Below are positions 51,701 to 54,700 of a DNA stretch of 64,000 bases, in pieces. The stretch is from Escherichia coli (GTDB taxonomy: Bacteria; Pseudomonadota; Gammaproteobacteria; Enterobacterales; Enterobacteriaceae), in NCBI RefSeq assembly GCF_041886205.1, contig NZ_CP169029.1, one strand, 5' to 3'. Position numbers: made by a program. Positions within the stretch are counted from its first letter, which is position 1. Each line of letters begins with the position of its first letter.

Positions 51701-54700
51701 AGGGCTGTTTAGTCATCAGCGCTTTCTGACAGTGCTGAGATTTCAACCTGTTGCAGTAAAAATGAGTAGATATAAGGCAAGTGTGCTGCCAAACCCATCT
51801 TTTACGGGGTGAAGGTAGATTTCGTATGAAGGGTATTCGCTATTTCACTGAAGCCTGTTCCGTTCTTCCATAGTTCAAAAACAGAGGCTTTTTCCTCTGC
51901 TGTAAATGTTCGTCTCATTCAAAAAACCTCTGCAACCCCATGTTTTCACATAACTGTTGCGTTGACCAATTGAATCTACAACGGCTTTTTTTAATATGTC
52001 CCGTTCGTCGGTAACCCGCTTCAGCTCTTTCTGGAGACGGCGGATCTCGGCCTGAGCATCTGACTGTTCTTTATTAGTGGAAGAATCCGGACCGTACTTC
52101 TTTATCCAGGAGTAAAGGCTGTGGGTGGTGATATCGAGACGTGTTGCAACGCTGGCAACAGAATAACCGCGATCAACAACCTGTTTGACTGCTTCAATTT
52201 TAAACTCTTCGGGATAACGCTTACCGCTCATGGGCACCTCTCTTTAAGTCATCTTAAATGACTCTGAGGTGTCTATTAAACCTGTGGCGATTCATTCGTC
52301 TTGTTTATCAGGTTATTGATGATATGTTAATTATTGCGGTAGTCGCAGTAGGTAAACGTGAACGTAGCAACGTTTATCATCTCGCTAGTGAGCGGATGAA
52401 ATAATATCCCTGTCAGCACTCTTTTTTATCTGCTGCCGTTTTTTCCGGTGATTTTTTTCTGCATGCAGAAAAAAGCCTGCCCGGAGGGCAGGCATGAAAG
52501 ACAATCGCACAGTTAGTGTTGAAATTAATGATATCACGCATTATACCCGGTGGATACACAAACCATCCCATGTAAATGCACTGGCATCCTAATCTACGTC
52601 TGATAACAACTGCAATGGCTGGACCTGTGATTTAAGAGAAAGTTATTATGTTTATTGAATATAACCGAAGTGATAAATAAAAGTATTATCACCTGTAATA
52701 TTTATGCTTATTGCGTGGTTTTATCTGGTTATATAAAGCACAGATGTTCTCATTATTTTCTGAAAAATAACCATATGGATCGATTTCCCCCACCCAGCCG
52801 AAGCGGTTCGGCTCGTTCGGCGTGTCGTCGACACTGAAGCGCTTATCCACTTCGTTCCAGCGGTAAGAGTCGTCGCTGTCGCTGACGAATGCCATCGGGT
52901 CGCTAAACAGCGTGATCCGCCATGCGATCAAAAAGCGTAAGTGTTTCCGACAGACGAGCCGGTGAAAAAAGTGGTGTGTCTGGCAATACAGGCATCGTCC
53001 CCGAAATGGACGATGCCGTTGAAGGACTGGGGTATGGCAATAAGCCGCTTTATTATCGGATTCAGTGACCGCCTGGACGGTTACTTTTGAGAAAAGGCAT
53101 TTACACACAATCCTAAACAGACTCCTATATTTCAGATTTTGTTATCAACGCATTTCAAATCTCTTAGAAATCATTACTGTCGTCATATTTTCCGAGGCAG
53201 CTCACCACCTAACCATGTCTTATCAACAATATTTTGTGAAGGATATTTATAATGTAAAGACACATCAGAAACGATATTTCACACTCAACATGGCAGATGT
53301 ATTATGGTATCCATGTTCTCCAAGTTGAATGCCTGCATCAGCCCGGAATGCTACTTCTGGTGTTATCATTCCCACAACACCACCATTTATTTCTCCGATA
53401 TCACGCGCACCATCCTGGTATATACTTACACCATTCATACTGGTGCCGAAAACACGACTATTGTGCAACCAGTGTGCCTCCACAAATGGTCTGAACGGAA
53501 CCGCATACCGCGTATTTTTACCGTTTTTGCTGGTAAGCCATGTTCTTGCTCCCAGGCGGGTGAGAATATTTCCGTTACCGGTATTTTCAATACTGGTTCC
53601 GTTACTTTCATGATATTTGTCTGATTTTACATTCATCCGGACAACCTGAAGCTGCGGCTGAACATACCATTCATGACTTCCCTTGTAATTGTCGGTAAAC
53701 TCTCCAGCCTTCCATGAATATCCTGCTTCCAGAGATACCGTAAACCCTTTTGACTTCCATGACTCAGCAGGCAGCCGTTCTCCATTTATATGATTATCAA
53801 ACCAGCTGTATTGCAGCCAGCTATCAAGATAAGAACCATTGTGTGTTTCATCATTGGCATACCATGTTGCATAAAGACCCGCTGTGTATCCATTCATTCT
53901 TCCTTCCGAATGGTATCCGGTGCTCAGGGCATTCGTACTGTTATTATTATGACCATAGCCAGCCATCATACCTGTATGCCAGCGATCGGTAGCATTCAGG
54001 CTCCACTGAGCTATATCTCCCCCTATTAACACAACGTAGCTATTCCCCCGGGTTCTCAGCTGACTACTGTTGTCACGCCAGCGATTATGTTTTCCTTTAT
54101 TATACATCCAGATACCTGCTTCATTTTCTTCTCCTGTCATGTGGCTGATATACAACTCCTGTCCCTGTCGTTCATACAGATTCGTTACAAACAGATTATT
54201 TGCAGCAGCAATACTGGCAACATAGCTACCTGCCTCAGGACGCAAATTATTATCATGGTTTTCCGGTACAGCTTCAGGTTGTGGTACAGGAATGTCTTTT
54301 CTGCTAATCAGATACCAGTTAGTGCTGTTAATCCCCTGACCACGTTTCAGTATGTAATCATAAGCTCCGGCTGTAATACGTTCCGTCTGAATGAATTCAG
54401 CATTATCAGCATTGCCACTGACGTGAATCACTTCAATCCCATTAAGTGTCTCTGCACCAGTACCACCGGCCTGAGTAACAGCGACACGGGTACGGCCACT
54501 GGCATTACCTTTAATCACCAGACGATCTGTTTTCGAATTGTCACCACCTGTTTCTGTCTGGAGGAGAATAAGTCCATTTCTGCCAGTGTAATTCCCTCCG
54601 ACAGTCAGTATATTACCCGGCATATATGTAGTGAGATCGACTATACCACTATTGCTCAGATTTCCTGCAACGCCCCCAAACCCGGAGAGTTTGCCCTGCT

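Follow-up and report, generated by a model that had tools for sequence, protein, structure and literature searches.

Positions 52774-52885 (minus strand) of the window, by which we mean the whole 64,000-nucleotide stretch of Escherichia coli DNA analysed here, very probably represent a non-functional 112-nt relic of a mobile phoX gene of plasmid type, of which a central piece of about 6% is retained. The relic is already known, as public annotation marks it as a pseudogene: RefSeq/PGAP places an 'alkaline phosphatase' pseudogene 'missing N-terminus and C-terminus' at 52773-52886, and PGAP gives the relic the pseudogene label in every genome inspected. Carried along as a hitch-hiker by the autotransporter adhesin gene aatA, it is a commonplace pseudogene fragment and, being a scrap of a dead phosphatase gene, has little biological weight.

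An internal piece of phoX

A blastn search of the region returned window 52774-52885 as one 112-nt match (37-38 codons) to intact phoX genes, and the boundaries of the match were the same against seven of these. The highest identity was to the phoX of plasmid pRM14721 (94.6%, 106/112, E 1e-47), followed by the copies of plasmid CP099215.1 and of the chromosome of strain L26 (91-93%). Three enterobacterial or metagenome copies gave 83% (L002 and L008) and 81% (L003), and the phoX of the tRNA-Asn island, found in 132 E. coli chromosomes and represented by locus L010, gave 81%. At the protein level, the relic peptide aligned by BLASTP with residues 288-325 of the 659-residue pRM14721 PhoX (34/38 identical, E 6e-22). 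This protein (WP_106668530.1), encoded on an IncF plasmid, is complete, with a Pfam match of E 8e-168 over residues 80-615 and a TAT signal at residues 34-52. The PhoX structures 3zwu/4amf in the PDB were also matched by the peptide (phmmer, E 7e-5), at residues 219-256 of the 592-residue 3zwu_A. The Pfam match to PhoX (PF05787) covered profile positions 201-224 of 515 with E 0.0026 and 15.7-17.4 bits, which falls below the gathering score of 24, as is to be expected of a piece this short. When the 78-aa translation was used in a word-indexed protein search, only relic copies and fragmented phoX calls from error-rich assemblies were recovered and no clean full-length PhoX; the intact phoX genes were reached via contigs and DNA searches.

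In alignments that included the flanks, all similarity to PhoX was lost on both sides of the relic, and the G+C content changes in sharp steps from 28% in the spacer to 59% in the relic and 50% beyond it. With real homology and a match that lies inside the gene, the relic is, on these alignments, an internal piece with about 6% of the phoX length, truncated on either side and descended from the PhoX family. The significant similarity to bona fide PhoX establishes family membership in the sense of descent and not of function.

The relic lies within a mechanical open reading frame of 139 aa with a GTG start (52689-53108, minus strand), the C-terminal part of which contains the peptide quoted in the preliminary description. 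That description had treated 52689-52900 as protein-like, which holds for 52774-52885 only; the remainder has no PhoX homology and the span was drawn too wide. Its view that the segment is genuinely coding-derived is borne out by the blastn, BLASTP and PDB matches given above, and its view that a gene was truncated by rearrangement agrees with the loss of phoX on both sides. The family had been called unknown, with a tentative impression of PhoX/DUF839; the impression was correct, as the Pfam, PDB and BLASTP matches place the peptide in PhoX. The proposal of a C-terminal fragment, or 3' end of a gene, fails on the match positions (residues 288-325 of 659 and profile positions 201-224 of 515), which are internal. 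A chance ORF, which would have been indicated by a lack of significant homologs, is an apt description of the 139-aa frame as a whole and not of its core.

The last 28 residues of this frame, which follow ...EIDPY (52689-52773), have no counterpart in any aligned PhoX and lie in the spacer of 28% G+C. As the frame ends about 85 nt past the homologous core and its upstream part is clearly foreign, one could take it for the native C-terminus of a gene without its 5' part, with the stop at 52689-52691 being the gene's own; however, intact PhoX runs about 334 residues beyond ...EIDPY and the window diverges completely at 52773, and this reading, which we regard as practically untenable, was rejected by the PhoX alignments. 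The stop codon of the 139-aa frame is fortuitous, and the tail is read-through into AT-rich, plasmid-type spacer. The whole frame would be a mechanical read-through from insertion sequence antisense into the relic and on into the spacer.

Flanking elements and the aatA 3' side

The relic joins the inside of an IS1414-like element at its 5' end, which corresponds to the N-terminal side, and at its 3' end runs into plasmid-backbone spacer located behind a toxin gene of relE type. The IS1414-like 3' stump (IS256 family; 52884-53124, plus strand) comprises the last ~68 transposase codons together with the terminal inverted repeat of the right end. In blastn, its 241 nt align at 91% identity with IS1414 nt 1597-1838 of locus L009 and end at the IS terminus ...AACAG(G/A)CTC; the homology begins abruptly at 52884, and intact IS1414 copies of other genomes match window 52884-53124/5. 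Transposase similarity (75-78% aa against annotated IS1414 transposases, tblastn) and the terminal inverted repeat assign the stump to IS256/IS1414, but it falls short of a complete IS1414 with a ~400-aa transposase and both terminal repeats. The transposase C-terminus is frameshifted by a 1-nt deletion, PGAP annotates a frameshifted hypothetical protein missing its N-terminus, and no Pfam match was obtained for the 68-aa plus-strand translation (52885-53090). The stump cannot transpose. Read in antisense it supplies the N-terminal part of the 139-aa ORF, which had rightly been dismissed as junk: the part is noncoding in that frame and is the antisense of the IS1414 transposase 3' end.

The AT-rich piece that abuts the other end of the relic (52693-52773, plus strand; G+C 28%) supplies the non-homologous tail of the ORF and its stop. 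Its first 75 nt (52693-52767) share 83% identity with IncFII plasmid DNA that directly precedes the start codon of a gene for serine acetyltransferase. The ATG aligned with the start of the plasmid acetyltransferase gene now opens a 20-codon ORF (52772-52834, plus strand; MDRFPPPSRSGSARSACRRH and stop), which runs antisense through the PhoX relic and may sit behind a former acetyltransferase promoter region. Further to the left, a spacer without assigned strand (52405-52692) lies 3' of the C-terminal fragment of a RelE/ParE family toxin gene (52297-52404, plus strand), annotated by PGAP and matched by Pfam ParE_toxin at E 0.0037, below the cut-off. The spacer is collinear with plasmid pEC20-4B-2-1 (L004), where an annotated gene pair precedes the same series of spacer, relic and stump: phd/yefM, which encodes the antitoxin, and relE, which is full-length but frameshifted. 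The relE fragment is the left-hand member of the conserved block, and a fragment of an IS3-family orfA is found further left of it. This fragment corresponds to a 120-aa ORF (51875-52237) that runs into a leftover IS30 end.

Within the spacer, a strong terminator-like hairpin was located at 52493-52475 on the minus strand (GCCTGCCC-TCC-GGGCAGGC, then TTTTTT), in a consensus-only scan that found 5 such sites against 0.9 expected. A 32-codon ORF (52489-52587, plus strand; MKDNRTVSVEINDITHYTRWIHKPSHVNALAS and stop) begins within this hairpin, 3' of the relE fragment. Between the window type of the block and the type found in BL21 and on plasmids, the divergence is ~12% in 52405-52634 and ~1% in 52635-53300, and the step near 52635 suggests a recombination breakpoint.

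On the other side of the stump lies aatA, the gene of the APEC autotransporter adhesin (53265-56762, minus strand; 3498 nt, 1165 aa), which is intact. Its product is 98% aa identical to BL21 AatA and carries an NCBIfam autotransporter barrel domain (E 1e-96), so that the 3,498-bp ORF, the beta-barrel and the near-identity to BL21/APEC aatA all identify it as AatA. The differences from BL21 are mostly in the first ~125 residues, which cover the signal peptide and the start of the passenger domain. An aatA ORF of 3,498 bp has been described in BL21/REL606, IMT5155 and pAPEC-O1-ColBM, where mobile elements flank the gene (PMC2944236). The native aatA 3' flank occupies 53125-53264 (minus strand), and the homology to the stump-free aatA plasmid CP099215.1 ends at 53124. 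The composite lies 140-490 nt downstream of the aatA stop (53265-53267) and the relic ~380 nt downstream; the preliminary description had put the segment upstream of the autotransporter stop, which is the reverse of its place in gene orientation.

The block is situated in an island next to tRNA-Arg(CCT) (argW, 61737-61811), beside cscRAKB and dsdA. Elsewhere in the window, an IS5-family element of ~1.06 kb (41558-42614; ORF 41590-42558, plus strand; transposase NF033579, E 6e-107) interrupts emrK; strain wlxctx60, otherwise ~100% identical, does not have this insertion. At 51830-51836 the window is missing 5.6 kb relative to wlxctx60, with a 7-nt overlap at the junction; the missing segment holds CP4-type island genes (yeeU-family antitoxin, radC-like and antirestriction), an IS911 fragment and most of an IS30.

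Downstream of the aatA stop, the minus strand showed nothing terminator-like as far as 52493, where the first strong site, the hairpin at 52493-52475, begins. Transcription of aatA could run through 53264-52494 to this hairpin, and the relic and stump might have been co-opted in a long 3' UTR that affects aatA mRNA stability or expression; the ~1% divergence of 52635-53300, set against ~12% in 52405-52634, could be read in the same direction. We regard this as improbable, since the low divergence equals that of the 3' end of aatA itself and is explained by the recent common descent of the block, and aatA occurs without this flank in other genomes, CP099215.1 included. Moreover, the terminator scan is one of consensus matches, aatA is treated as a single-gene locus in PMC2944236, and no Rfam family or notable structure was found in the region: Rfam hits within 51300-53400 at E<=1 were limited to mir-36 and IS009, both at chance level and far below their gathering scores. 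Slightly less probable still is that relic, stump and spacer together form a ~770-nt aatA 3' UTR that modulates expression or gives rise to a 3'-UTR-derived small RNA or micro-ORF product. If a 3' UTR role were true, the debris would owe its persistence beside aatA to that role and not to hitch-hiking, the latter being the reading that we retain.

Decay of the relic and its open reading frame

PhoX is an Fe/Ca-dependent alkaline phosphatase that depends for activity on an entire six-bladed beta-propeller, Ca/Fe site included, and whose predicted export route is the Tat system (PMC11098088). The relic does not reach the PF05787 gathering score over the ~515-position domain. Its homology is confined to 37-38 codons between unrelated flanks and cannot make up a complete propeller with the Ca/Fe site, and everything before codon 288 and after codon 325 is missing, the Tat signal and the native start and stop included. 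The start and the stop of the ORF both lie in foreign DNA, and no start signal, Tat signal or fold-sized domain was found at the relic. In the invariant GWVVEIDP motif the conserved valine has been replaced by glycine. The window type differs from the BL21/plasmid type at two sites within the relic, both nonsynonymous, and 3 synonymous and 3 nonsynonymous changes were counted by reading the alignment with pRM14721. Natural variants with frameshifts or a codon deletion also occur (P0002, P0008 and P0016). No finding speaks for a function, and judged from its sequence the relic would do nothing.

A shorter frame of 70 aa, which starts at the ATG at 52900 and begins MAFVSDSD..., is open in most copies and is present in nr as a 'DUF839 domain-containing protein' of 64-79 aa. 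Its openness and its prediction by gene callers, with clusters P0001, P0004 and P0005 holding 15, 120 and 33 members under the name 'DUF839 domain-containing protein', would fit a real small protein, a domesticated mini-PhoX. We consider this very improbable. Only 37-38 of its residues derive from PhoX, against a beta-propeller domain of ~515 positions; its 28 C-terminal residues come from the AT-rich spacer, and it takes its start codon from IS1414 antisense, where nothing resembling a Shine-Dalgarno sequence precedes that codon. Further, frameshifted and deleted variants exist in nature, the substitutions are nonsynonymous with one of them in the most conserved motif, and PGAP rejects the ORF as a gene. 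On the favoured reading of a dead relic, an open frame is what the low divergence of the block (~1-2%) would lead one to expect, and it does not show selection. Dozens of database entries of 64-137 aa, named 'DUF839 domain-containing protein' or 'hypothetical protein', are read-through translations of this relic and are not to be counted as E. coli PhoX homologues.

Origin of the block and relation to known systems

The relic, the stump and the end of aatA occur as one piece in approximately 372 of 5426 complete E. coli genomes, on chromosomes as well as plasmids, and the block of relE/spacer, relic, stump and aatA travels together on IncF-type plasmids and chromosomal islands. All sampled E. 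coli copies of the relic match phoX nt 863-974, one of them being further shortened to 894-974. Because the relic boundaries are shared by all sampled copies, the distribution points to one founding event, that is, a single origin of the block followed by its spread. The invariant boundaries and the adjoining IS1414 stump make the relic a clean single-origin marker with which moves of the aatA block between IncF plasmids and chromosomal islands can be followed.

The IncF plasmid CP099215.1 (L012/L013, record 39625-47420) carries intact phoX, cybC (cytochrome b562) and aatA within 8 kb, with phoX 2.3 kb from aatA. Positions 679-4554 of L013 match window 57003-53124 at 92.6%, and the match ends at the outer end of the stump. 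The aatA 3' flank of this plasmid looks like an 'empty site', and the plasmid is possibly a relative of the one on which the block was assembled; the presence of intact phoX so close to aatA suggests where the assembly took place. On such a plasmid, one that also carried phoX, IS1414 would have inserted ~140 nt past the 3' end of aatA; two illegitimate deletion/recombination joins would then have trapped the remnant of phoX, with the IS interior on one side and the toxin-antitoxin spacer on the other. We infer that the block arose once, from a donor plasmid with phoX near aatA, and likewise the order of events. In CP099215.1 phoX and aatA are on the same strand, as are the relic and aatA in the window, but the gene order differs, with phoX upstream of aatA in the plasmid and the relic downstream in the window; a simple deletion therefore does not lead from one arrangement to the other. 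Intermediates were looked for, in the form of a longer relic or of a phoX split by IS1414, and only intact genes or the same 112-nt piece came up.

Other sources were considered and set aside. With 81-83% nucleotide identity, as opposed to the 94.6% of pRM14721, neither the Klebsiella-type phoX nor that of the tRNA-Asn island, which is accompanied by aztABCD, was accepted as the donor. In P0006, a 122-aa translation from a 481-bp contig labelled E. coli, the exact tail of the relic follows an N-terminal PhoX segment that is far more divergent; the entry was rejected as an ancestral longer relic, being probably a chimera assembled across the conserved motif.

Intact phoX is present in 132 complete E. 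coli genomes. In the one E. coli locus inspected out of these 132 genomes (L010, strain 1EC187 chromosome, 1954587-1962379), phoX directly follows a P4-type integrase located at tRNA-Asn and precedes aztABCD. Genome L003 has a similar layout of integrase, phoX and ABC-3 and ZnuA-family genes.

Among known phoX genes, the relic belongs with the mobile E. coli clade formed by pRM14721, CP099215.1 and the strain L26 island (91-95% nucleotide identity), and the tRNA-Asn-island and Klebsiella-type genes stand apart at 81-83%. Compared with pRM14721 PhoX it keeps 6% of the gene and is without the Tat signal, start, native stop and beta-propeller. Against Pseudomonas fluorescens PhoX (3ZWU/4AMF) it aligns to residues 219-256, a shared 14-residue motif included, but the ~45% identity extends across 38 residues only, whereas the solved enzyme is a six-bladed propeller of ~590 residues (PMC11098088). 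With IS1414 the stump shares the last 241 nt (91%), the right terminal repeat included; unlike the complete element, it is frameshifted and without the first ~1 kb and the left end. Of the published variants of the aatA flanks, a close counterpart is the BL21/REL606 type (Dai et al. 2010, PMC2944236); the paper itself says nothing of a PhoX relic, IS1414 stump or toxin fragment. BL21 carries the same aatA (98% aa) with the same relE fragment, relic and stump downstream, whereas in the window the block is located not at the BL21 site but in the argW island by the csc sucrose genes.
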